From Malacoraja senta (taxonomy: Eukaryota), in assembly GCA_038087875.1 (NCBI GenBank), contig CM075994.1, forward strand, positions 124,001-188,000: a stretch of 64,000 nucleotides of DNA, written 5' to 3'. The notes beneath the pieces were generated by a model. The model was not told the DNA's origin and made no database searches. It saw nothing but the letters and a program-made list of their open reading frames with translations. The position numbers and the translations under genes are program-made. This document shows positions 1 to 52,385 of the stretch, piece after piece; position 1 is the stretch's first letter; each line of letters starts with the position of its first letter.

Positions 1-679
1 AAGGGAGCATGGGGAGGTTAATTGGCAAATAGGTAGAAAAGGCAACAAAGACTGGGGTGAATGTCAATAGATATTTTTAACAGAGATTGACAAATTCTAG
101 ATTTAAGGGTGTCAGAGGTTATGGGGCGAAGGCAGGAGAATGGGGTTGAGAGGGAAAGATAGATCAGCCATGATTGAATGGCGGAGTAGACTTGAGGGGC
201 CGAATGGCATTATTCTGCTCTGAGAACTTATGAAGTTATGACATGATCAACTAGCACAGTGCAACATCATCATCATTTGCATTTTAACAGGCGTGTACTG
301 AACTTCAAGCACTTACACAATTGCATGAAGGGGTGAAATGTAAAGCCGGAGGAAGGGGTATAGGTGGAAGGGGACAGGGGGAAATGGGATATAAGAAGGA
401 AATGGAGACTCAGAGTTGAAGATAAGGGATAGAAAGGGAATGAGGAGGAATGTCATCAGCCAGAGGGTGGTGAATCTGTGGAATTAATTGCCACAAACAT
501 CTGTGGAGGACGTTATTGGGTAACTTTAAGGTGGAGATTGATAGAGTCTTGATGAGTACAATTGTCAGCGGTTATGGGGAGAAGGCAGGAGAATGGGTTC
601 AAGAGGGAAAGAATGACGGAGTAGACTCCTTGGGCCGAATGGTCTAATTCTCGCATGACTTAGCAATTCTCGCATAACC

Positions 680-1612
680 AATCAAATCTGTTTAACCTTA
701 CCCACTGCCTCGAGGATATAAAGTGTTGGATGGCCAGAACTTCCTCCAACTAAACGAGAGTAAGTCTGAGGTCATCCTTCTCGGCCCCTCGGACTCAATC
801 AAAATGATAGCAGGCAGCCTTGGAAGCCTTACCCCACTACTCAAACCTCACGTCAAAAACCTTGGCGTGATATTTGCCTCAGCACTGAAATTTGACAAAC
901 AAGTCAATGCCGTGGTAAAAGCTAGCTTCTTTCAGCTTCGGACGATAGCTAAAATAAAACAATTCCTCCAGTTTGATGACCTGGAAAAGATCATCCACAC
1001 ATTCATCTCCTCCCGCCTAGATTACTGCAACTCCCTTTACACTGGCATCAGCCAATCTTCCCTGTCCCGCCTGCAACTGGTCCAAAACGCCGCAGCGAGA
1101 CTCCTGACGGGCACCCGAAAAAGGGACCGCATCACCCCGATCCTGGCCTCTCTCCACTGGCTCCCTGTGCGGTTCCGTATAAACTTCAAGATCCTCCTCC
1201 ATGTCTACAAAGCCCTCAATGGGCTTGCCCCCACCTACATAAAAAGTCTTCTCACCCACCACTCCACCTCCAGGTCCCTCAGATCCACCGACTTGGGGTT
1301 GCTGAATATCCCACGGGCTAGGCATAAGCTCAGGGGTGACCGCGCCTTTGCGGTTGCAGCCCCTAGACTGTGGAACAGCATCCCCTTTCCCATCAGAACT
1401 GCCCCCTCCATCGACTCTTTTAAGTCAAGGCTAAATACTTATCTATACTCCCAAGCCTTTCCTGACGTCCTCTGAGTGAGCGCTACATGTATATATGTAT
1501 GTAGTTTGTTTTGTTTGTGCTATTCTTATAACAAATGTAAAGCAATTTGGCCAACGAGAGTTGTTTTTTAAATGTGTTATATAAATAAATGTGACTTGAC
1601 TTGACTTGACTT
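680..1612 (+). mobile_element. L2 LINE, 5'-truncated 3' fragment
   Basis: ORF 723-1475 has L2 ORF2 C-terminal motifs (SRLDYCNSL, LQLVQNAAARL, LHWLPV, PRLWNS); ends in a (GACTT)n tail. Confidence 0.9.
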
Positions 1613-1619
1613 ATGAACA

Positions 1620-2790
1620 TGAAATGCAGGAAGGAGGGGGTAGGAGCAGAGTGACCAAGGGGGAGGGATAAGGTGGGAGGTATGCATGGGAGTGGGGACG
1701 GGGAAATATGGGATGATTGGAGGAGGTGCTATTTGAATTTTGAAAATTCAATGTTCGTACCATTGTCTTGCAAGCCAAGGAGTTTTGTGCATGCATTTGT
1801 GAAATTGCAAAACCATTGGCGATTTACAGTGGGGTACAAGTAATTTTCTTTGAAGTTAGACACAAAATGCTGGAGTAAGTCAGCGGGGACGGGCTGCATA
1901 TCTGGAGAGAAGGAATGGGTGACATTTTGGGTCGACACCCTCCTTCAGCCTGTCAGCAGAGAGGGAGACACAGAGGTAATGAAGTATAAGGTGTGAAAAC
2001 GAGAGATCAAATGGGACAAAGCTCAAGGAAAATGTGGAATGGATCATTGTTAGCAGAGGGGAAGGTGACAAAGAGGCATACAATGTCAAATTTATCCAGG
2101 GGACAGTGAAGAATTGGGGGAGAAATGGAGAGAGAGGGAAAGCAAGGGTTACTTGAAGATAGACATAAAATGCTGGCGTAACTCAGCGGGACAGGCAGCA
2201 TCTCTAGATAGAAGGAAAGGTAATGTTTGGGTCGAGACCCTTCTTCAGTATAAAGAAGTATCTCGACCCAAAATGTCACCCATTCCTTCTATCCAGATAT
2301 GCAGCCCGTCCCCGCTCAGACCAAAGGGTCTCGACCCGAAATGTCGCCTTCCTTCTATCCTTAGATGCTGCCTGCCCCGCTGAGTTACTGCAGCATTTTG
2401 TGTCCATCATCGGTGTGAACCAGCATCTGCAGTTCCTTCCTACACAAGGGTTACTTGAAGTTAGAGAAATCAATGTTCATACCGCTGGGGTGTAAGCTGC
2501 CCAAGCGAAATATGAGATGCTGTACCTCCAATTAGCGCTGGGCCTCACTCTGACAGTGGAGGAGGCCCAGGACGGAAAGGTCAATGTGAGAATGGGAAGG
2601 GGGAGTTAAAGTGTTTCGCAACTGAGAGATCAGGTAGATTTGAGCGAAGGTGTTCAGCAAAACGATCGCCGAGCCTGCGCTTGGTCTCACCGACATACAG
2701 AATTCCACACCTGGAACGGCGAACACAGTAGATGAGATTGGAGGAGGTGCAAGTGAACCTCTGCCTCACCTGTAAGGCAGGGAGTTCTGA
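1620..2790 (-). mobile_element. Penelope-like element fragments (GIY-YIG end plus pLTR copies, partly inverted)
   Basis: FTCTSSNLIYC..C..LYVGETKRRLGDRFAEHLRS on the minus strand; several hammerhead-type pLTR motifs. Confidence 0.85.
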
Positions 2791-2874
2791 GCGTGTATGC
2801 ATGAAATTGCAAAGCCATTGCTGGTGTTTTGCCAAGGGGTTGCAAGTTATTTTCTGTTCCTGGGCCTCTTAACA

Positions 2875-3450
2875 TAGAAAATGGTGGCTGTTCGAGCCAG
2901 CACCACCATTCAATATGACCATGGCTGATCATCCAAAATCAATTCTCCCCATATCCTGCTTTCTCCCCATATCCCTTGATTCCGTTAGCCCTAAGAGCTA
3001 AATCTAACTCTTGAATACACCCAGTGAATTGGCCTCCACTGCCTTCTGTGGTAGAGAACTCCACAGATTGACAACTCTCTGGGTGAAAACGTTTTTCCTC
3101 ATCTCAATCCTAAATGGCCTACCCCTTATTTTTAAAACAGTGACCCCTGGATCTGGAATCCCCCAACATCTGGAACATTTTTCCTGCATTTAGCCTGTCC
3201 AATCCGTTAAGAATTGAATATATTTCTATGATCTCCTCTCATCCTTCTGAATTCCAGTGAATATACTGTAAACCCAGTCGATCCGTTCTTTCATCATATG
3301 TCAGTCCTGCCATCCCGGAATTTAGCCTGGTGAACCTATGCTGCATCCCGGAATTTAGCCTGGTGAACCTATGCTGCACTTCAATAGCAAGAATGCCCTT
3401 CCTTGTAATTAGGAGGCCAAAACTACACACAATACTCCAATTGTGGTCTT
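2875..3450 (-). mobile_element. CR1 LINE 3' fragment with an internal 34-bp tandem duplication
   Basis: CR1 C-terminal motif FTQRVVNLW and CR1 3' UTR. Confidence 0.85.
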
Positions 3451-4883
3451 ATGGGCCTCGGTGTGGGAAAGTGAGCAAACCCTATATTTGCATTTCACCC
3501 TACACTTGTGAACTTAGCATCGACACTGGGCGGCACGGTGGAGGTTATTGGTTTCAAAGCACTTTAAAAAATTGAACTATCTTTTCAAACTGTTTTAATC
3601 TTTTAAAAAACAGGGTCTTTTTAAGCCTTAACTTGTTTGTTTATTTTGCATATGTTGTGTCAAAGCCATTAAAATGACCTGCGCTGTTATAAAAGCTCTT
3701 TGAGTATATTTGAATATATGCAAATATTTGCAGGGTTTTTCTGGGTGTGGAGGAATATCTCAGATGACTCTCAGTCTGAAGTAGGGTCTTGACCCAAAAC
3801 ACCGCCTATTCCTTTTCGCCAGAGATGCTGCCTGTTCCGCTGAGTTACTCCAGCATTTTGTCTATCTTCCATGTAAACAAAAGACAGCTGTGGTATCATT
3901 TTACTGACATTAGTTTTATGAAAATACCTCATCCTAGGCAGGCTCTCTTGTTAGAAACCTGGAGAATTCTCTGGTCAGAGCCTGATTATGAGAGACTGCT
4001 ACTTCACAGAAAGACATTGAGTTATATTGAAGGTTATTAGGGGTGGAAACACAACTGACAAACTAAAACATGATGATCATCTGATTTCCCATTGTGTGCC
4101 TTCTTGTTACTTGCTTGCATTCTGTTTTGTTCCATGGCTGTACAATCTCACTTTAATCACACAGCCTGCTTTGTCAATGCTGTATCAGCATTGAAAATGC
4201 TGTATCAGCATCAAAAATTATTGGCTTACCCCTACCATCCCTTGAATCACTTTATCACAAACGGTCACTGCACAGAGCCCGCAAGATCATCTCTGATCCT
4301 ACCCACCCTGCACACTATGCCTTTCAGCTACTGCCCTCTGGGAGGCGTTACAGGTCAATTGCCTCCAAAACAAGCCGCCTCAAAAACAGTTTCATTCCCA
4401 CTGCAATTAACATTTTAAACTCTGTACGGTGAGGAATAAGAATAAGCATGGCACTTATGTATTATGTAATGTGTCTGTCTGTATGTACATCTATGTTATA
4501 AGTTTAATGTTGATGAAATGTTGGAACCTGTACCGAGCTGTACTGATAACAAATTCCACCAGCCTGGCTGTGTGGTCATTAAAATATACAATACAATACA
4601 ATACAATCTTAATTTTCAAGTTCAGTCAAAATGGTCTTTATTAATGTAGGTCTTGTGATACCGATACACCGTTGTTTCTTTTTAGCATTTTGTGAGTCAA
4701 CCAGTTAACATAACAAAGCAATTTATTAGTAAAATATATATAGATAGGCAGTGCTTTTATACCCTGTGTGCTATTCACATGAAGCAGCTTCATCCACCAC
4801 AATATAGTAAGTATATGGAGAGACTGGTAGGTAATGGGGCAGAATTCCTAAAGAAACATGCATTCCAATATTACATAAGCCAA

Positions 4884-5190
4884 GGGCGGCACGGTGGTGC
4901 AGCAGTAGAGTTGCTGCCTCACAGCACCAGAGACCTGAGTTCGATCCTGACTACGGGTGCTGTCTGTGCGGAGTTTGTACGTTCACCCCATGATCTGCGT
5001 GGCTTTTCTCTGAGATCTTCAGTTTCCTCCCACACTCCAAAGATGTACAGGTTTGTAGGTTAATTGGCTTGGTATAAATGTAAATGATCCCTAGTGTGTG
5101 TAGGATAGCATTAGCGTGCAGTGATCGCTGCACGGCACGGACACGGTGGGCCGAAGGGCCCTTTTCCACACTGTATCTCTAAACTAAACA
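4884..5190 (+). mobile_element. tRNA-derived V-SINE (HE1-like). Further copies at about 13425-13710, 14082-14388, 28829-29160, 31775-32102, 33035-33320, 33915-34350(-), 38335-38630, 40123-40428, 41770-41990(-), 42138-42860
   Basis: tRNA-like head with A/B boxes (GGTGGCGCAGCGG, GTTCGATCC), V-domain core, CR1-like tail ending in (TAAAC)n. Confidence 0.9.
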
Positions 5191-5267: not shown

Positions 5268-5727
5268 TCAAGTCAAGTCAAGTCAAGTGAGTTTATTGTC
5301 ATGTGTCCCTGATAGGACAATGAAATTCTTGCTTTGCTTCAGCACAACAGAACATAGTAGGCATTGACTACAAGGCATTCTATAAATATATACACACATG
5401 AATCAATATACTGATAAAGTGCAAATAACAGTATTGGCTAATAAAGTTCAGTGTTATGTCCGAGCCAGGTTTAATAGCCTGATGGCTGTGGGGAAGTAGC
5501 TATTCCTGAACCTCGTCGTTGCAGTCTTCAGGCTCCTGTACCTTCTACCTGAAGGTAGTAGGGAGATGAGTGTGTGGCCAGGATGGTGTGGGTCCTTGAT
5601 GATACTGCCAGCCTTTTTGAGGCAGCGACTGTGATAGATCCCCTCGACGGAAGGGAGGTCAGAGCCGATGATGGACTGGGCAGTGTTTACTACTTTTTGT
5701 AGTCTTTTCCTCTCCAGGGCGCTCAAG
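5268..5727 (-). mobile_element. Rex1/Babar LINE 3' fragment, split by the Crack-like LINE and resuming at 10479-10560
   Basis: RLQKVVNTAQSIIG...DPHHPGH..LPSGRRYRS..RFRNSYFP; the sequence joins across the insertion as gcgctcaag|ttgccgaacc. Confidence 0.85.
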
Positions 5728-8700
5728 CTCGGAGCCGAGTGGTACCAGGCCGGGCCGGTGTGTGTGTGTGAGAGAGACAGACTAGCCAGCCGAGAGCAAG
5801 CCCGGGCTTGCCGGGCGCTACCAGGCCGGGCCGGTGCGACAACCGCGGCGGGAGAGAGAGGGAGAGAGAGAGAGAGAGAGAGAGGCGACCCGAGAGCCCG
5901 GGAACAGGCAACAGGCAACAGGCAACAGGCAACAGGCGGCGGGCCGGGCCGTGCGGTGGCGGCGGCGGCAGCAGTTTATGGAGAGAAATGACGTGAACAG
6001 TCAAATGGGAGACTGTCAGAATTAAGTGTTAAGAGTTAAGAATTAAGCAGGAGATGGCGGCGGCCGAGCACGAGCGCATCCTGCAGGAGATCGAGAGCAC
6101 AGAGTCGGCTTGCATCGGGCCCACGCTCCGTCTAAGGAGAGCGATTATCCGAAGCTGAAAGAAGTTGAAGGCTGAAGGCTGTGTCGTCGCTGCGGACAGA
6201 CGGACGGACGGACGGAGCTGAGCAGTCAAAATGCCACCAAAGAAGAACGAGGAAATTGAGGATATAAAGAAGGCGCTTGATTTTCTGTCTGAGGAGATGG
6301 CTACTGTCTCTAAGCAACAGAAAATGATAATTAATTTGATGAGTGAAATTAAAGAACTGAAAAAACAAAATGAGGAGAAGGATAAGAGGATCGCCAGCCT
6401 AAAATGCCATGTAACAGACCTGGAGCAGTACACCCGCATGAATGACATTATTGTCAGTGGACTGGAGACCAGGCCCCGGTCCTACGCCAGGGCGGTAACA
6501 GCAATGGCCGATGGGGAGCCCACCGCTCCAGACATGGACTCCGTGGAGCAACAGGTAACTGCTTTCTTTCATAGCAAAGGCATATCCATATCCAACACAG
6601 ACATTGAAGCATGTCATCCTTTACCTCGAAAAAACCAAAGTGTCAAACCAGCCATAATAATTCTTTTTACGAAAAGAAAACACAAAAATGCATTGCTCAG
6701 ACAATGGAAAAAGCTCAAGGGATCTGATGTTTATGTGAATGAGCACCTTACAAAAAAAATGCAGATATCGTCAGAAGCGCACGCATCCTAAGGTGTTCAT
6801 AAAGCTAAACGGATCAGCAGAGGAGGCTAAAGTGCTGACCATAAGATACATCGAGGAGCTGGACAAGTACCAGTGACTCCAGAACAGTGACTGTGTCTAT
6901 CAGTGGGATTGACTTGAACTATTACGATCATGGACTCTTGTGAAGAGTTTGACTGTTTAAACTTGATAACAGCTGGAAATGAAAGGGACAATGATGACTG
7001 TGATGGTTGGAACTTTAAATCATTTAAATTCACTGATCATAATATGCATGATTTTGAACAAGATATTGACCCTGAAAATAATTTTCTTAATAATATAAAC
7101 AATAACTGCTGTTATTACTCTGAAGATCAATTCAACATGAACATAAAATCAGATCATGGAATGTCAATAATTCATTTCAATAGAAAAAGTTTATATGCAA
7201 ATTTTCACAACATCAAGGATTACTTAAGTCATCTAAACAAACCATTCAATGTGATAGCCATATCTGAGACCTGGCTTAGTACTGAAAAGGGTGTGGATTT
7301 TGAGTTAAATGGATATGAACTGAATTACATAAATAGGAAAAATAAAAAAGGAGGAGGGGTGGCTTTGTATGTAGATAAAAGATTAAATTATAAAATAGTG
7401 GAAAATATGACAACTAATATTGATGATGTGATGAAGATTATTACTGTAGTAATCTACCTGAAAAAAAAGAAAAATGTACTTGTAAGTTGTGTATACAGAG
7501 CACCTGGTTCCAATATTGAAATATTTAAGAATAGTATGGAAAGATTGTTTGCCAAGAAAGATCACAGAGTTGTGTTCATTTGTGGGGATTTTAATTTAGA
7601 TCTCTTAAATCCCAACAAGCACAGACAGACTGATGAATTTATCGATGTATTGTTCAGTATGAGTTTTTTTCCACTTATCACCAAACCAAGTAGAATAACA
7701 TCTCACTGTGCAACTCTAATAGACAACATATTTACAAACAGTATGGACAACAACATAAAGAGTGGGTTACTATTAAATGACATCAGTGACCATCTACCGG
7801 TTTTTGTAATGTTTGTTTGTGATTCTGTTAAGTGTAAGGATGTTAATAAGATTAGATACAGGAGAGTAAGAACAGAAGAATCTATAAATAAATTTAGAAA
7901 TGTATCACTGACCCAAAATTGGAAACATGTGTTTAAAGAGGCTGATACCAACAAAGCGTATGAAACATTCCTGATAATATTTAAATCATTATATGATGAA
8001 CACTGTCCTTTGAAACTACACAACAAGAAGCAAAAATATATAGATAGGCCATAGATGACAAAAGGACTACAAAATGCATGCAAAAAAAAGAATATCTTGT
8101 ATAAAGAATTCATAAAATTCAGAACTATAGAAGCAGAAATTAAATACAAAAGATATAAAAACAAATTGACTAGTATTATGAGGACATGTAAGAAAGATTA
8201 TTATAATAAAATATTAAACGATAATAAAAATAATATCACGGGCATATGGAATGTGTTAAATAATATTATCAGGAATGGATCAATGAATATAAACTACCCT
8301 CAGTATTTTGAAGACAATGATACAACAGTAAGCGATATGAATGATGTGGTTAATAGGTTTAACAAATTTTTTGTAAGTGTGGGACCAAAACTGGCAGAAG
8401 AAATCGATAATCCACAGTCAGAAGAAGGAGAGGGGAAGGTTGTGGATTTGTTAGACAGCAACCCAAACTCAATGTTTTTGAAAGCAGCTGATGAAAAGGA
8501 GATTATTTACATTGTTAGTAATTGTAAGAATAAAAGGTATCTACAGACTGGAATGACATTGATATGGCTTTAATCAAGGTAGTCATTGGTGTAATTGTAA
8601 AACCCTTAACTTATATTTGCAATTTATCTTTCAAAACTGGTGTATTTCCATGTAAAATGAAAACTGCCAAAGTCATCCCACTATACCAAGCTGGAGACAG

Positions 8701-10478
8701 AAATCAATTTACAAATTACAGGCCGGTGTCGTTACTCTCTCAGTTCTCAAAAATATTAGAAAAACTGTATGTAAGTAGATTAGATAACTTTATCGAGAAG
8801 CACGAATTGCTAGTTGATAGTCAATATGGATTCAGGTCAAACAGATCGACATCCATGGCATTAATGGAGTTAATTGAAGACATTACCAGTTCTATAGATA
8901 ACAAGAAATATGCAGTGGGTGTATTTATAGATTTGAAAAAAGCATTCGATACGATTGATCATCATTTGCTAATCAAAAAACAGGAAAAGTATGGAATCAG
9001 AGGGGTTGTACTAGAATGGATGAGAAGCTACATAAGTAAAATACATCAGTTTGTGCAAATAGGGGACTGCAAATCAGCATGCTTAGAAATAACTTGTGGA
9101 GTCCCACAGGGGTCGGTTTTGGGCCCCAAATTATTTATTTTGTATATTAATGATATATGTAGGGTGTCAAACCTCTTGAAATTTGTGTTATTTGCAGATG
9201 ACACTAATATTTTCTGTGATGGGGACAATTTGCAGCAGCTTTTGGAGGTGGTCACAGCAGAAATGAGTAAACTAAAAACATGGTTTGATTTGAATAAATT
9301 ATCATTAAATTTAAACAAAACCAAACTTATGTTGTTTGGAAAATGCAAAATAAATACACAAGTAAAAGTAATGATAAATAATGTTGAAATAGAAAGAGTG
9401 TATGAAAATAAATTTCTGGGTGTGATTCTTGATCACAAAATCTGCTGGAAACCCCATATAAAACATGTGAGAGCAAAAGTAGCACGGAGTATTGGAGTGA
9501 TGGGGAAAGCAAGGCATGTTTTGAATGAGAGAGCACTGTATATTCTGTACAGCTCACTTGTGTTACCGTATTTAAATTACTGTGTGGAAGTATGGGGCAA
9601 CACCTACAAAACCACCTTACAATCACTAAGCACACTACAAAAAAGAGCTATTCGTATAGTAAACAATGTAGGATATCATGAACACACCAATATACTGTAT
9701 TTAAAATTACACACCTTAAAGATTAAGGATCTGGTAGAATTTAAGACTACACAAATAATTTATAAAGCAAAAAATAAACTGCTACCTGTAAACATACAAA
9801 AACTGTTCAGAGACAGAGAGGGGGGTTATAACTTTAGAGGGAAACTAAACTTGAAACAGCATTATGCTCGGACCAATTTAAAAAGTATGTGTATTTCCAT
9901 TTGTGGGGTGGTTTTGTGGAATGGTCTTGACGAAACGATTAAACAAAGTATGAATATAATGCAATTTAAAAAAATGTACAAAAGATATATCTTTGAAAAG
10001 TACAGTAATGAGGAAGGAGAATGTAAATCTCACAGATGTTAATGGTGCTTGTTCTTTTTGTTCTTTTCTTTTTTTGTTCTTTTTTTCTTAATAGCTTGAT
10101 TGGAGTAGTTTTATTTGAATTGTCTGTTTAGTTTATTTTATTGAATTTTGCATTTGTTAATGGTGAAGAATGGGGGTAGGACTTGACAAGCATAGGCTTC
10201 TTCCTATCCCTTTTCGAACGAGTCTGTGTATTATGTTGAAATTGTCTTTTGATTTTTTAATTTATGTATGTACATATATGTTATGTATATGTGCATGTGT
10301 GTATATGTATGTATGTATATATGTACATGTATATGTATGTATGTGTGTATGTATTTATGTATATATATATATGTATATATATAATTTTCCTTTATTTATT
10401 ATTCATTTTCATCTTTTCTTTTCTTCTTTTTTTTAATCGTTCGAAAAAAACACAAAAAAACAACAACAAAAAAAGAAA
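5728..10478 (+). mobile_element. Near full-length Crack/Daphne-like (L2-group) LINE: GC-rich 5' UTR, ORF1 6231-~6876, ORF2 (APE endonuclease plus RT) 6930-10042, 3' UTR and A-rich tail
   Basis: ORF1 coiled coil and LEQYTRMNDIIVSGL; ORF2 motifs SETW, GGGV, GDFN, IDNIF, SDH, QYGFR, DLKKAFD, GVPQGSVLGP, FADD. One stop at 8052 and frameshifts near 6750 and 8540. Confidence 0.9.
6054..6158 (+). pseudogene. EXOC6B: Captured EXOC6B/EXOC6 (Sec15) first-exon fragment forming a uORF in the LINE 5' UTR
   Basis: Translates as MAAAEHERILQEIESTESACIGPTLR, versus recalled vertebrate EXOC6B AAEHERILREIESTDTACIGPTLR. Confidence 0.8.
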
Positions 10479-11079
10479 GTTGCCGAACCAGGCCACGATG
10501 CAACCGGTCAGCATTCTCTCTACTGTGCACCTGTAGAAGTTAGAGAGAGTCCTCCTTGACCAAATAGTTCACATTGATAACATTTGCTTTGTCTGTCTGA
10601 ATAGTTAGCAGGGCTATTTTGCTTTTATTGCATTTACAGTATTTGCATCTGACGAATAGCAGGACCAAGCATATTTCTCACTCCAGTGATGTCAAGCAGC
10701 TGAGCTAATAATTGTTTTTTTCTTCCCCCAAGTGTGATTTTCCAGTTGTTGCAGGGTGTGGGATGCAGAGCAAGATGTAGTCACAAATCCATACAAAGGC
10801 GTGGGTTTTCTCCGAGTGCTCCGGTTTCCTCCCACACTACAAAGGAAGAAGGGTTTCGGCCCGAAACATTGCCTATTTCCTTCGCTCCATAGATGCTGCT
10901 GCACCCGCTGAGTTTCTCCAGCATTTTTGTGTACCAAAGGATATATATAACCTGTTTCCGCCCTGTATCTCTAAACTAAACTAAACTAAACTAAAGCTCA
11001 TGACATCAGTCCGGGCTCACCCTCCAGTAATTGGCCCTGAGTTGGTTAATGGTTTATTTATTGTCTTTTGGACCAACCC

Positions 11080-16890: not shown

Positions 16891-19334
16891 GTACTGAGTG
16901 AAATGAAAAGGTTGTTTAAATATCTGCCATATATTGAACTGCTGCATTACTTAGTGTAGTGGCCATTTGGCTTTATTTAGTGTGTCATTAATTATGGCAT
17001 TTTCCTTTAAATTTTAGTCTGCCCGTAATTATGTGGGTGGGATTTATTACGTAGTCAGTGGTGTGTTTGCTGCTGGGCTTTTTGCGCTGAAGCTGTTTTC
17101 TAGTTAGTTTAGTTCGGAGCTACGTGGCTGAAGGTATAACTTTTTGACCATTAGAGTTTTCTAATGTTTCTAAGCCTTCCCTCACAGTGGGAAACTTTTA
17201 TTCCACTGTGTGGGGATGTTTATGTTAAAGACTATCATGTTCTGTGTTGTTTTTTTATTTGTATGGCTGTATGGTGACCCCAAATTTCACTGTACCAATT
17301 GGTGCATGTGACAATAAATGTCTCTTGTCTCTTGTCTCAATAAGCTGAAGTTTGACAAAGTTTAAAATAGTAAGATTAAACGAGAACTTACCAGTTTGAA
17401 GTTTGATCTGTATTTTATGAGGTTACGATGAGGGATTACGTGAAGAGCCCGTCCAGCACGCATGCGCGACATTCTTCAAAGCAGCGGTGTGGAATCACAG
17501 GAAACACAACAATTGAAATAAACATAGTAAAGAAAAGGAGAACTGAGATACTAGTTGATCTCTATATTTGAGGGTGGGAGCGGAGGGCATGTAATCCCTC
17601 ATCGTAACTCCTCATAAAATACAGATCAAACTTCAAACTGGTAAGTTCTCGTTTAATCTTACTATTTTACTTCGGAGTCACGTGAGTGACTACGTGAAGA
17701 TTTTAAAGCTCTGTGATTTCAAACCGTGTAACAGTTCATACTTCACTCGCTGCCGAAGTGTTTCAAGGGAGGAAGTATGTTATCGTAATCAACCATGAAT
17801 CTGTTTGTAAACAATAATGGTATTTATTAAACAATAACAAAAGAAAAATGCTCCCCCGGGCTTAAATTATATATTTGCAGATTCTAAAATTCTTTCTGCA
17901 AATAACACGGGTTCTGCTAGCGTCTTGTTGTAGAACGTTTGGAACGTTTTCTCCATGGACCACCCCGCTGTAGCCAGGATGTGGTTCAGTGGTACGTCCA
18001 TCCTTTTAGCCGCCGATGTGGATGCTGCCCTAGTGGAGTGAGATGTATATATGTCAGTATCTACTCCAGCAGCTCGCAGTACCTGCTTTAGCCACCTTGA
18101 GATGGTTTGGCTCGACACCCGACCATGTGGTTGCTTGTGGCTGGCCCATAAGGCTTTTTCTCTCCCTCGGGAATCTCTTGTTGTGTTGATGTAAGTCAGT
18201 AGGTGAGTCATGACACACATCCGCGAGTCAGGTGGGTATGCCCGGAAATCCATAACTAGGCCTGAAGTTCCTGGCCTGCTCTGCTTTACCAGCTCCTGAA
18301 TGGTGAATGATACCCGGTCTGGTGTTATAACCATGTTGTCCAGTCGCAGTAAGTAGAGGGACTGGACTTTGTGCTGAGACTAGTGCCATCAGCATGACCG
18401 TTTTCAGGGTTTGCTGTTCCAGAGTGAGAGACCTGGCTGGTGACCATCCCCTTAGGTATGTCAGGACCACACTGACATCCCAGATTCTGGTGTACCTAGG
18501 TCTAGGGGGGTTGGAGTTGAATATACCCCTCATGAGTTTAATCACCAGCGGGTGAGATCCTATAGCCTGTTGTCCTGGTACTTGTTTTAAATAGGCTGAC
18601 AGAGCACTTCTGGCAGTATTGATGGCACTGTAGCTCAATCCTTCATTATGGTGAAGGCCAGCCAGGAACTCCAGTAGATTGGTTATGGTTGCAGATGAGT
18701 ACGTTGTCCCAGTAGTCGAGCAGTATCTTTCCCACTTCCTGATGCTCGATAGGTATTGTTTCCTGGTGGACATACGGTGTCATCGTGTTGATGGTCCTGT
18801 CAGACAACCCCAGGCCCAGCAGTGGTCTTTTCATAACCTGCAACCCAGTAGGTTAATTTTGTCATGGCATGGATGACTTATGGGTGAGTCAATAGGTCTG
18901 GGCTACTGGGGAAGGTCATAGGAGTTTCAATGACCATGTCGAGGACCACTGGGAACCATGGCTGTGTAGGCCAGTCGGGTACTATCAATTTACCTGAAGC
19001 AGAGTCCATCTGTATTTTGCGTAGTACCCTACTGATGAGGCAGAAGGGGGGGAAAGCATAAAATAAATAGTTTCCCCAGTTCAGCGCGAATGCATCTATC
19101 GCTGCTGCCTCAGGGTCTGGTTCCCAAGCGACATACATTGGTACCTGGTGATTTAGTCTGGATGCAAAGAGATCGATATCTGGTGTGCCATATTGCTTTG
19201 TAATTTTAGCAAAAGCTCTAGGATTTAACATCCATTCGGTGTTATCATTGAATTTGCGTGACCTGGTGTCTGCCACTGTATTTAGCTTACCTGGTAGGTA
19301 AGTTGCTGATAGCCAAATATGTCTATCGACACAC

Positions 19335-20898: not shown

Positions 20899-22068
20899 GA
20901 CACACCATTGCCAGATTTTGTTGACCAAATTGTCACATGATATCGATTTTATTCCGCCCATATGGTTAATATAGGCCAACACCATGGTATTATCAATTTG
21001 TAAACGAACATGCAAATGGTGCATATCCGTAGAATATGCTTTTAAACCATAAAACGCACCCAACATTTGCAAGTAATTTATGCCCAGTGTTTGTAGTAAA
21101 GATGATTCTAGGTAGTCCATCTACCACCTGTGCTGGATATGGTATTAGTTGCTCCCCAGCCTTGAGCACTGGCATCTGTTTGTATAATTAATGTTGGGTT
21201 ATTGATGATGATAGGGCTGGAACTATGCCAAATGTGTTCTATCCACCATTGTAACTCTGATATTGCTTCAATGGGTAATTTCATGGTTCGGTCAAAGTGA
21301 CCTGCATGTTGTTTCAACGGCTGTACATTTGTCCTTTGTAGGTTCTGATAGTGCCGGGGTCCAAATTGTGTAGCTGGAAATGCTGCTACCATTTTGCCAA
21401 TTACTCTTGCCACTTGTCGGATGGTTGGTCGATGGCTAACCATTAAATTGTTGCACGTCTGTGCCAATTCTGCTGCTTTACCTTTTGGCAACGTTACAGA
21501 CATGTGGACTGAGTTAATTGTGAATCCCAGATAGTCCATAGTTGTGGATGGCGTCAACTTAGATTTATCTGGATGTATGACAAATCCCAGGGTTTCAAAC
21601 AATTGTTTGGTAGCTAATACAGCTGATTTCTACTCCATGGTGTTGCCTACTATTAGGACATCATCAAGGTATGCCATGACAATATGTCTTTGTTTTCTTA
21701 ATGTTGCCAAGGCTGGTTTTAATATCTTGGTAAATAGTCTAGGGGCTGATGTTAACCCATTAGGCAACGCTTTATACTGCCATAGTTGCCCCATCCAGGT
21801 AAATTTCAGGTATCTGCGATGACCCTTATGAATGGGTACTGAATAGTAGGCATCTTTTAAATCAATGCTTGCCATAAAGTATACTTTGGAAATCAGTTGT
21901 TTGGCAGTTACAAATGTTTCCATTTTGAAATGTACATACTTAACAAAGGTATTTAGCGAGGTTAAGTCAATGATGATGCGACATCCACCATCTTTTTTGC
22001 TTTTGGTAAATATATTTGAGACAAATTCCAAAGGTTCATGTTTGGATTTCTCAATGACACCCTTTGTA

Positions 22069-25000
22069 GGGGAGATCAATAATATGCCAATTACGCTGGT
22101 AAACATATATGCGCCCAACTTTGATAACCCTCAATTTTTTAATAAAATTCTGAATATAATTGCAGAATCTAATTATCAAAATGTTATAATCGGAGGAGAT
22201 TTTAATTGTGTTTTAGATCCTTATTTAGATAAATCGATGCAAAAACAAAAAGGTCAGACGAAATCTAAAACCAGTGAACTCTTACACACATATATGGAAA
22301 ACACAAATATAACAGATGTATGGAGGATTGCAAACCCGACGGGAAGGGATTACTCGTTTTATTCAATGGTGCATAAAACATATTCACGGATAGACTATTT
22401 TCTTGTGGATACAAAATTAATTCCGCAATCTCTGAATCCTAAATATCATATTAATGCGATCTCAGATCATTCTCCGTTAACTTTTGTTCTAAAACTAGAA
22501 GGAATGTCTATGAATAAACCGTTCTGGAGGTTTAATTCACAAATTTTAAAAGACCCTCAAGGGAGTATCTATCTAAAAAAACAGATGGATCTATTTTTTG
22601 AGTTAAATGATACACCAGAGATATCCCCCACGTTATTATGGGAATCCTTCAAAGCATTTATAAGAGGAGTCATTATTTCATTTCAAGCTTATCAAAATAA
22701 AAAGAATAAGAATGAACAAAGACACTTAGAAGATCAAATAAAACAGTTAGATATAGATAATGCTAAAGACCCAACTATGGATAAACATAATAAAATACTA
22801 CTACTGAAATTTCAGTTAAATAAATTACTGTCAGAGAAAGTTATAACATTATTTCAAATCACAAAACAAGAACACTTCGAATTCGGGGACAAACCCCACA
22901 AACTTCTAGCACGACAACTTAAAAAACGGGAAAAAGAGAATGCAATATTAAAGATTAAATCAGATAGAGGGGAAGTATTAACACTACCCAAGGATATTAA
23001 TAAAAGATTTGCTCAATTTTACCAGAATCTATACACATCTAAAACGTCAATAGACAATAATAAAATCTCAGAATTTTTAGATAATTGTAATCTACCACAA
23101 TTAGAACGCAGGGAACAAGAGGAACTGGGAGCACAAATTACTTCTAAGGAGATAGAAGACACAATAAAAACACTAAAAAATGGAAAAACACCAGGACCAG
23201 ACGGATTCAGTAATGAATTTTATAAATCTTTTTATGATATAGTTACTCCACGATTACAAAAAATGTATACATATGCTTATAAAGAGCAAAACCTACCTGA
23301 AACACTAGCAGAATCAACGATCATATTAATACTTAAAAAAGATAAAAATATAGAAGAACCAGGATCATATAGAGCTATTGCTTTGTTAAATACGGATCAG
23401 AAAATAATAGCAAAAACATTAGCCAATAGATTAAGCAAGTATGTTAGTAGACTAATACATGAGGATCAAACAGGATTTATACCTAAGAGACACTCATTTA
23501 ATAATTTGAGACGTTTGCTTAACATAATGCATTCACATAAATCTTATGACCAAGAGTTAGCTATCATCTCACTGGACGCAGAAAAAGCGTTTGATCAAGT
23601 AGAATGGGACTATATGATCAAAGTATTGCAAAAATTCCAATTGGGAGAAAACTTTATTGCATGGATAAAACTACTATATAACAAACCTACGGCTAGAATA
23701 CTAACTAATAATATATTATCTTCAAAATTCGAATTATCTAGGGGCAACAGACAAGGATGTTCACTATCACCGCTGTTATTTGCTTTGGTAATTGAACCCC
23801 TTGCTGAAAAAATAAGAACACACTCGAATATTCACGGTTATAACACAAAATATTCAAACAACAAACTATCCCTATATGCTGATGATGTACTACTGTACAT
23901 CACAAAACCACAAATTAGTATACCAAATATATTAAACTTAATTGAGGACTTTGGATCCTTTTCAGGATATAGAATAAATTGGAACAAAAGTGAAATTATG
24001 TCGATTAAACCAAAAGACTCAACACATCTCAGGAAATTCCCTTTTAAAATAGCTATGGAAAAATTCAAATATTTAGGAATTGAGATTACTAGAAATTACC
24101 ATGATATGTTTAAAGCTAATTATAATCCCCTACTTAAGAAATTAAATAATTTGATTAAATTTTGGAAAACACTTCCGATGTCCTTAATAGGTAGGATAAA
24201 TGCTATAAAAATGATTTTCTTACCACAAATCCTTTACCTATTTCAATCAATACCTATATATCTCCCAAAAAAGTTTTTCAAAAAACTGGACTCAGACATT
24301 ACAAATTTTATATGGGATTACAAATCCCACAGAATACAAAGAACACACCTTAACAAACGAAAAGAGTTGGGGGGTCTAGCGCTCCCTAACTTTATGTATT
24401 ATAACTGGGCAGTAAATATTAAAAATATGATTCACCTGCTGGACAATTCTGCCCAGCAGGTGGACTGGATTATAATGGAAAAAGGGGATTGCTCCCCGAA
24501 TAATATAGGAGCGATTATTCTCTCTCCAATAAATTTGAATAATAAAAATTATAATAAAAATCCAATTATATATAGCACTATTAGAACATGGAAGCAAATA
24601 AAACAGAATCTAAAATTAAGAAACCTATCTCTCTTAATACCAATAGTCAATAACCCATCGTTTAAACCTTCAATCATAGATAAATCATTTATACAATGGG
24701 AAAGAATGGGAATCAAAACGCTCGAAGATCTGTATGAATTAGAAAAATTACTATCATTTCAACAACTACAACTGAAATATAATTTGAAAAATAATCAATA
24801 TTTTAAATATCTACAAATCTGTGACTATTTGAAAACACACACAAAAGATTATTATAATATGCCTTCCGACTTACTAGATGAAGCAATGAAGACAAAGGCG
24901 GAATCAGTTAATTTAATATCATACTTATATAATATCATCTTAAACATAGAAATACCCACAACAGATGGAATTAGAAGAGATTGGGAACAAGATCTAGGTA

Positions 25001-25976
25001 TAAAAATTTCAAAAGAGAGTTGGGATAATCATTTATTACAGGTGCATAAATGCTCGATCAACGTACGACATACGCTTATCCAATTTAAAACATTACATAG
25101 ATTATATTATTCAAAAACCAAACTAAATAAAATCTTTCCTAACGTCTCACCAATCTGTGATAAATGTATATGTCAAGAAGCTACCATAGCACATTCTTTT
25201 GTTTTTTGTACAAAAATCCAAAAATTCTGGTTTGAAATATTTGATATTTTTTCAAAATTAATCAAAATAAAACTGGTACCAAAACCAGAATGGATTATTT
25301 TTGGAATATCGGAAGGTATTCCTGAATTAAACGTGTATCAGAAGAATTTACTCAATTATGGGCTAATAATGGGAAAAAAGCTTATACTTAAATTCTGGAA
25401 AAATGCGCCCACACCAACAATAAAAATGTGGACATCAAATATGTTGGAAACATTACATCTGGAAGAGATGAGATTCCTCCTAGTAGGCAAAGTAGACCAA
25501 TTTCAAAAGACGTGGTCTACGTTTTTGGACCTATTACAAGCATGAGGTGCAATAGTAATTTAGAAAAACAAATAAATAAATAAAAGGTATCTGGACCTGG
25601 TAATGGGAGGTAAAACAAAAACAGACTTGGTTGGTAGTTCCTTCTCTATGAAGTATGTTATAAGAGTTATAATAGAGCGATTGTTCCTTCTTTCTTTCTC
25701 TTTCTTTTCTAGGGTCTATTTTCTAACTTTACTTCCTTCTCTAACTTCTTTTCTAAGGGGCTTTCTTTTCCCAACACTCTTTTGCACTTCACAACCTTTG
25801 CGCACTTTCTTCACTTTTCTTACTTCTTTCTTTTTCTTTCTTAAAGTTTAAAAAAGTGAAGCGGTACAAAAAATGTATTAATATATACGTGTTGTACATT
25901 ACTGTAATCTACCGTACTTCTATTAAAAAAAATATTTTTAAAAAAAAAGTATATTAAAAAAAAAAGATAAAAATAA

Positions 25977-46544: not shown

Positions 46545-49213
46545 CATCTCTCTCCCCCCTTCTCCCCTCCCTCTCCCTCTCCCCTCTTTCCCCCCTCTCC
46601 CCTCTTTCCCCCCCCTCCCCTCCTTCCCCCCCCCTCCTTCCCTCCCCCCCCCTCCTCTTTCCCTCCCCCCCTCCTCTTTCCCTCCCCCCCCTCCTCTTTC
46701 CCTCCCCCCCCTCCTCTTTCCCTCCCCCCCCTCCTCTTTCCCTCCCCCCCCTCCTCTTTCCCTCCCCCCCCTCCTCTTTCCCTCCCCCCCCTCCTCTTTC
46801 CCTACCCCCCCCTCCTCTTTCCCTCCCCCCCCTCCTCTTTCCCTCCCCCCCCTCCTCTTTCCCTCCCCCCCCTCCTCTTTCCTCCCCCCCCTCCTCTTTC
46901 CCTCCCCCCCCTCCTCTTTCCCTCCCCCCCCTCCTCTTTCCCTCCCCCCCTCCTCTTTCCCTCCCCCCCTCCTCTTTCCCTCCCCCCCTCCTCTTTCCCT
47001 CCCCCCCCTCCTCTTTCCCTCCCCCCCCTCCTCTTTCCCTCCCCCCCCTCCTCTTTCCCTCCCCCCCTCCTCTTTCCCTCCCCCCCCTCCTCTTTCCCTC
47101 CCCCACCCTCCTCTTTCCCCCCCCCCCGCCTCCTCTTTCCCCCCCCCCCCCTCCTCTTTCCCCCCCCCCCTCCTCTTTCCCCCCCCCCCTCCTCTTTCCC
47201 CCCCCCCCCTCCTCTTTCCCCCCCCCCTCCTCTTTCCCCCCCCCCTCCTCTTTCCCCCCCCTCCTCCTCTTCCCCCCCCTCCTCCTCTTTCCCCCCCCTC
47301 CTCCTCTTTCCCCCCCCTCCTCCTCTTTCCCCCCCCCTCCTCCTCTTTCCCCCCCCCTCCTCCTCTTTCCCCCCCCCTCCTCCTCTTTCCCCCCCCTCCT
47401 CCTCTTTCCCCCCCCTCCTCCTCTTTCCCCCCCCCTCCTCCTCTTCCCCCCCCCTCCTCCTCTTTCCCCCCCCCTCCTCCTCTTTCCCCCCCCCCTCCTC
47501 CTCTTTCCCCCCCCCTCCTCCTCTCTTCCCCCCCCCTCCTCCTCTTTCCCCCCCCCTCCTCCTCTTTCCCCCCCCTCCTCCTCTTTCCCCCCCCCTCCTC
47601 CTCTTTCCCCCCCCCTCCTCCTCTTTCCCCCCCCCTCCTCCTCTTTCCCCCCCCTCCTCCTCTTTCCCCCCCCCTCCTCCTCTTTCCCCCCCCCTCCTCC
47701 TCTTTCCCCCCCCCTCCTCCTCTTTCCCCCCCCCTCCTCCTCTTTCCCCCCCCCCTCCTCTTTCCCCCCCCCTCCTCCTCTTCCCCCCCCTCCTCCTCTT
47801 TCCCCCCCCCTCCTCCTCTTTCCCCCCCCTCCTCCTCTTTCCCCCCCCCTCCTCCTCTTTCCCCCCCCCCTCCTCCTCTTCCCCCCCCCTCCTCCTCTTT
47901 CCCCCCCCCTCCTCCTCTTTCCCCCCCCCCTCCTCCTCTTTTCCCCCCCCCTCCTCCTCTTTCCCCCCCCCTCCTCCTCTTTCCCCCCCCCTCCTCCTCT
48001 TTCCCCCCCCCCTCCTCCTCTTTCCCCCCCCCTCCTCCTCTTTCCCCCCCCTCCTCCTCTTTCCCCCCCCCCTCCTCCTCTTCCCCCCCCCTCCTCCTCT
48101 TTCCCCCCCCCTCCTCCTCTTTCCCCCCCCCTCCTCCTCTTTCCCCCCCCCTCCTCCTCTTTCCCCCCCCCTCCTCCTCTTTCCCCCCCCCTCCTCCTCT
48201 TTTCCCCCCCCCTCCTCCTCTTTTCCCCCCCCCTCCTCCTCTCTTTCCCCCCCCTCCTCCTCTTTCCCCCCCTCTTTTCCCCCCCCTCTTTTCCCCCCCT
48301 CTTTCCCCCCCCTCTTTCCCCCCCTCTTTCCCCCCCCTCTTTCCCCCCCTCTTTCCCCCCCCCTCTTTCCCCCCCCTCTTCCCCCCCCCTCTTCCCCCCC
48401 CTCTTCCCCCCCCTCTTCCCCCCCCTCTTCCCCCCCCTCTTCCCCCCCCTCTTCCCCCCCCTCTTCCCCCCCCTCTTCCCCCCCCTCTTCCCCCCCCTCT
48501 TCCCCCCCCTCTTCCCCCCCTCTTCCCCCCCCTCTTCCCCCCCCTCTTCCCCCCTCTTCCCCCCCCTCTTCCCCCCCCTCTTCCCCCCCCTCTTCCCCCC
48601 CCTCTTCCCCCCCCTCTTCCCCCCCCTCTTCCCCCCCCTCTTCCCCCCCCTCTTCCCCCCCCTCTTCCCCCCCCTCTTCCCCCCCCTCTTCCCCCCCCTC
48701 TTCCCCCCCCTCTTCCCCCCCCTCTTCCCCCCCCTCTTCCCCCCCTCTTCCCCCCCCCTCTTCCCCCCCCCTCCTCTTCCCCCCCCTCCTCTTCCCCCCC
48801 CTCCTCTTCCCCCCCCTCCTCTTCCCCCCCCTCCTCTTCCCCCCCCCTCCTCTTCCCCCCCCTCCTCTTCCCCCCCCATCCTCTTCCCCCCCCTCCTCTT
48901 CCCCCCCCTCCTCTTCCCCCCCCTCCTCTTCCCCCCCCCTCCTCTTCCCCCCCCTCCTCTCCCCCCCTCCTCTTCCCCCCCCCTCCTCTTCCCCCCCTCC
49001 TCTTCCCCCCCCTCCTCTTCCCCCCCCTCCTCTTCCCCCCCCTCCTCTTCCCCCCCCTCCTCTTCCCCCCCCTCCTCTCCCCCCCTCTCTTCCCCCCCTC
49101 CTCTTCCCCCCCCCTCTTCCCCCCTCCTCTTCCCCCCCCCTCCTCTTCCCCCCCTCTCTACCCCCCCCTCCTCTTTCCCCCCCCCTCTGCCCCTCTCCCC
49201 CCCCCTCCCTTTT
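46545..49213 (+). repeat. 2.7-kb homopyrimidine (C/T) minisatellite with successive unit types, lying between CR1 minus-strand pieces (46100-46545 and 49240-49530)
   Basis: Almost no purines on the plus strand; units of about 20, 21, 12 and 15 bp. Confidence 0.95.
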
Positions 49214-52185: not shown

Positions 52186-52385
52186 NNNNNNNNNNNNNNN
52201 NNNNNNNNNNNNNNNNNNNNNNNNNNNNNNNNNNNNNNNNNNNNNNNNNNNNNNNNNNNNNNNNNNNNNNNNNNNNNNNNNNNNNNNNNNNNNNNNNNNN
52301 NNNNNNNNNNNNNNNNNNNNNNNNNNNNNNNNNNNNNNNNNNNNNNNNNNNNNNNNNNNNNNNNNNNNNNNNNNNNNNNNNNNNN
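52186..52385. other. Assembly gap (200 N)
   Basis: Seen directly. Confidence 1.

Follow-up and report, generated by a model that had tools for sequence, protein, structure and literature searches.

Structure of the insertion and its target site

The window, a 64,000-nucleotide stretch of the Malacoraja senta assembly (C18:124001-188000, contig CM075994.1; assembly total 1.94 Gb), contains one LINE insertion at positions 5728-10476 that is placed inside another repeat. The left half of the interrupted repeat occupies 5270-5727 (minus strand), and its right half, preceded by an AAG, occupies 10477-10560 (minus strand), as placed by comparison with empty copies. This target repeat, which we take to be Rex1-like, has at least 40 copies in the genome, and the empty ones continue directly at the base equivalent to 10480. 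All six flanking-repeat copies without the insert read TCAAG/TTGCC, with a single AAG, whereas the filled site has an AAG at 5725-5727 (plus strand), which may be the left-hand repeat of a 3-bp target-site duplication, and again at 10477-10479. The AAG on both sides means that the flank rejoins across 5727/10480, and the change from one AAG to two delimits the insert as 5728-10476, with a duplication of at most 3 bp that merges with the A-rich tail; the right AAG could belong to the tail instead. An earlier note on this DNA had described an insertion into a Rex1 repeat rejoining at 5727/10479. The insertion into a repeat holds, with the right coordinate at 10480, and a Pfam scan of the target-repeat frame gave no match that would support the name Rex1.

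Read on the plus strand, the insert consists of a GC- and CpG-rich leader (5728-5975), a 72-nt AT-rich piece (5976-6047), the 3' coding part of what is supported as EXOC6B exon 1 (6048-6130), and a near-full-length LINE. The LINE part opens with the remainder of a 5' UTR that we call type A (6131-6230), which in alignment with native copies lacks the first ~69 nt. ORF1 (6231-6876) is broken by a ~43-nt deletion at a TAAGG microhomology (6789-6793). ORF2 (6930-10042), which encodes an AP endonuclease and a reverse transcriptase (Pfam Exo_endo_phos and RVT_1), is broken by a stop at 8052-8054 and, in the window copy, by a frameshift near 8530-8570. Both ORFs are broken in all three copies of the insertion present on C18, with the same ORF1 deletion and with the ORF2 open frame ending at the same place. 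The insert closes with an A-rich tail (10444-10476) in place of the GATATC and short repeat with which the family usually ends. The exon part lies on the same strand as the LINE ORFs, that is, the host first exon is in sense orientation, and the shared boundaries, the A-rich tail and the AAG on both sides indicate that the two parts arrived by one retrotransposition.

The leader is built of GA, GCAACAG and GGC repeats with an internal 18-nt direct repeat. It is 71% GC, with a CpG observed/expected ratio of 0.87 vs 0.28 in ORF2 and 0.41 in window 1-5000. A genome search (40 of 97 candidates scored) returned, simple-repeat matches aside, the three C18 copies only, and beyond these the leader's parent sequence was not found in the assembly. 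We presume that 5728-5975 is the 5' portion of the host first exon, and we infer that all of the insert before 6048 stems from the gene that supplied the exon part. The CpG-rich leader reported earlier is thus present, but it does not run unbroken up to the ATG: the AT-rich piece interrupts it (35% GC) and occupies the place of the native N-terminal codons of EXOC6B. A pattern search with this piece matches only the three chimeric copies, an Rfam search gave no match at E<=1, and a suspected hairpin was discarded (folding no better than shuffles, z -0.48). The AT-rich piece replaces native codons, and the insert may have been put together from more than one source. At its very beginning it agrees with the start of the native type A LINE at 12 of 13 positions (2/2000 shuffles equal), but this comparison was post hoc, one of the bases may belong to the flank, and the stretch coincides in part with the direct repeat inside the leader.

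The ATG at 6054-6056 (plus strand) opens a 34-aa frame that stops at 6156-6158, with the ORF1 start at 6231, 177 nt downstream of the ATG; all three readings of the earlier note are borne out by the sequence. Its "strong ATG" is ACG in the copy at C18:66.9 kb, the most distant of the three. The ATG stands on a CpG-transition site, where most orthologues have Thr before AAE/ASE and Mobula has Met, and most orthologues begin ~8 codons upstream of it. Because one copy has ACG and most orthologues have Thr, the start of this 34-aa uORF is probably the decay product of a Thr codon. A lineage-specific EXOC6B start at MAAAE may also exist, the proteins retrieved including no skate N-terminus. Pfam gave no match for the 34-aa peptide or for 4 leader-spanning frames (4 of 13 frames scanned), and a PDB search gave none.

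Elsewhere in the window, a 1231-codon open frame at 21850-25545 (plus strand) has endonuclease, RT and weak zf-RVT matches and is L1/Tx1-like; it lies in stretches missing from both duplicated segments, which makes it a later insertion. An integrase SAM-like domain match below the cut-off and an RT-like frame, at 18231-18779 and 21111-21629 (both minus strand), suggest a DIRS-type element. A 2.7-kb low-complexity tract of C and T only, with ~20-nt periodicity, spans 46547-49210.

The exon segment and the host EXOC6B locus

The peptide of 6060-6131 is identical at 23 of 24 positions to EXOC6B of Narcine and Hypanus (tblastn). In a search of 5.8 billion sequences with the 41-aa frame, 9/14 candidates passed, with E values of 2e-4 to 9e-4; all are Xenopus EXOC6-family proteins, and 8 bear the name EXOC6B. 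The proposed EXOC6B match is confirmed by both comparisons, and in a comparison with 17 proteins from sharks and rays the TES motif of the insert agrees with the form that rays have. Within the insert, EXOC6B identity is demonstrated for 6048-6130 alone, and no other EXOC6B exon was found in the 64-kb window.

The single mismatch is a Q for R in ILQE. Among 52 related proteins, Q goes with the EXOC6-type CVGP in 15 and R with the 6B type in 37, so that this one residue would point to the paralogue EXOC6 as the donor. Against such a derivation, which we consider barely credible, the insert's AAE and CIGP are 6B-type residues, as is the batoid TES motif. If the parent codon was CGG, a single CpG transition would have turned it into CAG, and family searches of the assembly gave one EXOC6-family gene only, with no separate EXOC6 gene found. 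These features together support the segment as EXOC6B exon 1.

The host gene is fragmented in this assembly, with pieces at C1:395.76-396.01 Mb, where one exon is inverted, and on C3455 (four exons); its exons carry residues common to rays, not sharks, which points to a batoid. Exon 2 (C1:395.756 Mb) has a one-base frameshift that is probably an assembly error, and a further piece lies at C1:395.867 Mb. DNA, peptide and degenerate-pattern searches of the assembly for the parent exon 1 returned only the three C18 copies. The 20 kb upstream of exon 2, interrupted by an assembly gap at 16.5 kb, holds neither exon 1 nor a copy of this LINE.

The LINE family and the splice-exact junction

The 3' part of the family yields 938 candidates in the genome. 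Copies differ from the majority base by 0.75-2.4% and the chimeric ones by 1.2-1.6%, a divergence by which the family is young. We take the element to belong to the CR1/L2 group and to be Daphne/Crack-like. Its ORF2 combines an AP endonuclease with an RT, and its native copies end in a short repeat, not poly-A, both of which fit a Daphne/Crack-like LINE. A survey of tails at the 25 top-scoring loci (3 unreadable, 1 the chimera's duplicate) left 21 readable others, and 20 of these carry the GATATC and short-repeat end to which the chimeric copy is an exception. Clusters resembling ORF1 are unnamed or FP-domain-like, a lead only. Every species-named relative among the best 120 of the RT at window 8564-10039 is from a teleost (50-70% identical) and none is from a shark or ray, a distribution that we note as a lead towards horizontal transfer from bony fish.

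The ORF1 start is kept in 22 of the 40 scored 5' copies (79 candidates), which reduce to 14 sites by shared flanks. Nine copies at four independent sites have the type A 5' end, and four copies at three sites have a second, unrelated native 5' UTR, type B, on the same core (C18:9.33-9.34 Mb, C7:20.71 Mb and C259:226 kb). The chimera accounts for three copies at one site, and six copies are truncated or inverted within the UTR. Type B is ~190 nt long, begins TGCGCCTGCG, contains a repeated subunit and joins the common core at about window position 6178, with no AG at the join. Native 5' ends thus stand on seven other independent full-length insertions, the chimera being one of eight. Four of the type A copies represent one insertion lying in other sequence, presumably LTR-retrotransposon pol-like, and are cut at the equivalent of window 6771 by another insertion.

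By its alignment with these copies the chimera is derived from type A, and the junction lies at 6130/6131 (plus strand), where the donor end of exon 1 meets the base after a LINE CAG with one shared G. On the host side, exon 2 starts after AG with G-TCG-GTG and so supplies the last base of an Arg codon, which means that exon 1 ends after the CG of that codon. The window reads CG and then TCTAAGG, so that similarity to EXOC6B stops inside the Arg codon, with 6130 as the last exon base. The relatives agree: among the 52 tallied of 54 matches (one unrelated protein and one further entry left out), 39 follow TLR with Tyr, Cys, Trp or the protein end, as read-through into a GT intron gives; another 6 read on into exon 2, and the remaining 7 follow neither course. 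The earlier proposal that the similarity ends at the end of exon 1, within this Arg codon, is upheld by the phase of exon 2 and by the read-through relatives. The host segment therefore ends at a splice donor whose phase comes from exon 2 and the relatives; the assembly lacks the parent exon 1 on which the GT of this species could be read directly.

On the LINE side, the AG predicted to precede TCTAAGG is present in 9/9 native type A copies (4 independent sites), where it forms a CAG some 69 nt into the 5' UTR. Ranked as a potential acceptor, it comes out best of the 75 AGs that one native copy has in its initial 800 nt, with 13/20 pyrimidines (tied top; the host exon-2 acceptor has 14/20) and the longest AG-free zone (39 nt). 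The join is thus splice-exact on both the host and the LINE side.

We found no source element that would fit this junction. None of the 40 scored LINE 5' copies (79 candidates) lies near EXOC6B, which counts against an intronic source, and the full set of ten chimera-private variants occurs in none of 12 native copies, with seven of the variants common to none; the private variants include those at 6317, 6813, 6817, 6928, 7434, 7450 and 7479. That 6771T also occurs in four copies probably reflects the edge of the alignment where an insertion interrupts them, and 6458T is a CpG site. Two loci were tried and rejected as source copies: C4312:72.7 kb, which matched an A-run tail pattern, keeps the usual GATATC end, and C9:14.41 Mb has an A-rich tail that differs in sequence.

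Origin of the chimera and its relation to known systems

The splice-exact join on both sides makes reverse transcription of a spliced EXOC6B-LINE RNA the most likely origin, as the earlier note had proposed in part, with host exon 1 spliced onto a LINE. We propose, with a probability of roughly 0.8, that such an RNA was reverse-transcribed once on C18, and that the copy then decayed and was duplicated, leaving a dead fossil. A transcript from the EXOC6B promoter would have had its exon-1 donor spliced to the cryptic CAG ~69 nt inside a type A 5' UTR, most likely in cis from a full-length type A LINE in the first intron, although trans-splicing may instead have produced it, the assembly showing neither parent exon 1 nor an intronic source. 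The chimeric RNA would have comprised the host leader, exon 1, the near-full LINE and an A-rich tail, and would have been reverse-transcribed once into the presumed Rex1-like repeat. Decay of the insertion would have followed, and segmental duplication of the region around it would have added two further copies. Both the RNA intermediate and the source element are what we infer from this geometry. The splicing model does not account for the AT-rich piece, the absent N-terminal codons, the atypical tail or the 12/13 start match. The RNA may have been polyadenylated and mobilised by a foreign RT; an L1-type ORF2 is present in the window, and nothing ties it to the chimera's A-rich tail.

A broader reading, which we regard as unlikely, is that this young LINE family swaps its 5' ends to renew its promoter and that the type A acceptor traps host first exons, the EXOC6B copy being a snapshot of that process. 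Trapping might then proceed by trans-splicing, and the EXOC6B copy could combine parts of two or more transcripts and have moved as a polyadenylated RNA through the RT of another element.

It is similarly improbable that the splice-like appearance is a coincidence and that the LINE RT jumped near the 5' end onto EXOC6B RNA, by template switch or after RNA ligation. The one shared G at the junction, the composite look of the insert and the fact that the family has exchanged its 5' end at a type B join that shows no AG would suit such a jump, and one or more extra jumps could explain the AT-rich piece and the leader. However, both ends of the join fall on splice sites, for which random switching gives a rough chance of 1e-3 (any AG) to 5e-5 (good acceptor), presuming a 3-kb mRNA with 21 junctions. 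A switch at the GTC common to the host mRNA and the LINE would, moreover, leave two Gs where the join holds one, which excludes the 3-nt microhomology register; the one-G microhomology that is left keeps a template switch formally possible.

The number of insertions bears on a further reading, in which the CpG-rich EXOC6B exon became an internal promoter or uORF for the family or a subfamily, which then multiplied with it in the manner of SVA_F1 and the MAST2 exon. The exon was found at three places, all on C18, by DNA (40 of 97 candidates scored), peptide and degenerate-pattern searches. Across the element, the copies at these places have 98.7-99.6% identity to one another, that at C18:66.9 kb being without the 3' end, and they share flank blocks of 13-15 kb at ~98% identity, so that they represent one insertion multiplied by segmental duplication. 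Counting the exon-carrying LINE copies, as had been advised to tell promoter capture from a single transduction, therefore returns three copies at one site, the mark of a single event, and not an exon spread over many independent insertions. The surrounding region, C18:52-325 kb near the contig start, is made of three ~98% identical segments, each >40 kb, with many insertion differences; the assembly gap at window 52186-52385 lies between two of them, and one could be an uncollapsed haplotype.

The CpG-rich leader, the existence of three copies and the two different native 5' ends already in the family all lend adoption some appeal, and GC-rich first exons seem under-assembled, so that copies could be missing. 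Against it, the three copies are one insertion and the exon stands at 1 of the 14 independent sites keeping the ORF1 start. The ORFs are broken, 5 of the 10 substitutions among the three copies in 5728-6130 are CpG transitions, and the ATG, itself on a CpG site, is absent from one copy. The earlier suggestion of adoption as promoter or uORF is thus not supported, and we consider it very unlikely. This CpG decay argues against the captured exon as a driver of transcription, and the chimeric LINE copy is, to judge from its broken frames, dead and without likely function.

That the EXOC6B promoter region was simply misplaced in assembly and joined to the LINE has next to no probability. The lack of the parent exon, and the broken and in part inverted state of the EXOC6B locus, would suit such an error, but no trace of the intron is left at the join, the same junction recurs in three copies differing by 0.4-1.3%, and the repeat that the insert interrupts has an AAG at either edge. 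Among sequencing runs, one of unspecified kind contains 51% of the sequence words and may come from the assembly's own sample, so that it is no evidence for the junction.

The single spliced insertion that we favour has close counterparts among human mRNA/L1 chimeras, of which 17 are listed in Law and Burns 2026 (PMC13174262), 15 of them sense and six ending at donors. Some of those reported there, such as PALLD and CREM, are joined at acceptors inside the L1 5' UTR; 15/17 loci are given as having no intronic L1 source, and the RAP1GDS1 chimera was multiplied by segmental duplication. The skate insertion resembles these in its sense host 5' exon ending at a donor, its near-full-length LINE, its single insertion, its acceptor in the LINE 5' UTR, the lack of a found source and its multiplication by segmental duplication (PMC13174262). 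It differs from them in that the element is CR1/L2-group-like, not L1, the host is a cartilaginous fish, and the target duplication is 3 bp as against 12-17 bp in the human cases shown (PMC13174262). EXOC6B has no match in six supplement files of PMC13174262.

SVA_F1 (MAST2 exon 1) and pt_SVA_D6 (STK40 exon 1) are described as having arisen by splicing of GC-rich first exons and as having reached 84 and 94 copies, respectively, with promoter activity shown for the MAST2 exon (PMC6139936, PMC4859970). Here, too, a GC-rich first exon is joined at an internal acceptor and replaces the native 5' end, but unlike those subfamilies we find one dead insertion, and SVA itself is non-autonomous (PMC6139936, PMC4859970). 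The insertion therefore has the sequence features of spliced mRNA/LINE chimeras and lacks the copy number of an SVA_F1-type subfamily. With the CR1-group elements Daphne and Crack, whose hosts are limited to 10 teleosts, the little skate and lamprey in PMC13343379, the element shares an ORF2 with APE and RT, a non-esterase ORF1 and, in native copies, a short-repeat tail. Its chimeric copy departs from them in having an A-rich tail, poly-A tails within the CR1 group being given in the same source as unique to Zenon. Searches of open-licence PMC and bioRxiv listings found no EXOC6B/LINE chimera and no spliced host-exon capture by a CR1-group element in fish, which is weak evidence.

Exon trapping followed by retrotransposition, known for primate L1 and SVA, would thus also have occurred with a non-L1 LINE in a cartilaginous fish. 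The insertion keeps an EXOC6B exon 1 that is otherwise lacking from the assembly, and it could therefore mislead gene annotation. One dead insertion does not show recurrent promoter gain by LINEs, but repeated exon trapping by this acceptor, or an origin of the join in trans-splicing, would offer a testable route by which LINEs may gain promoters.
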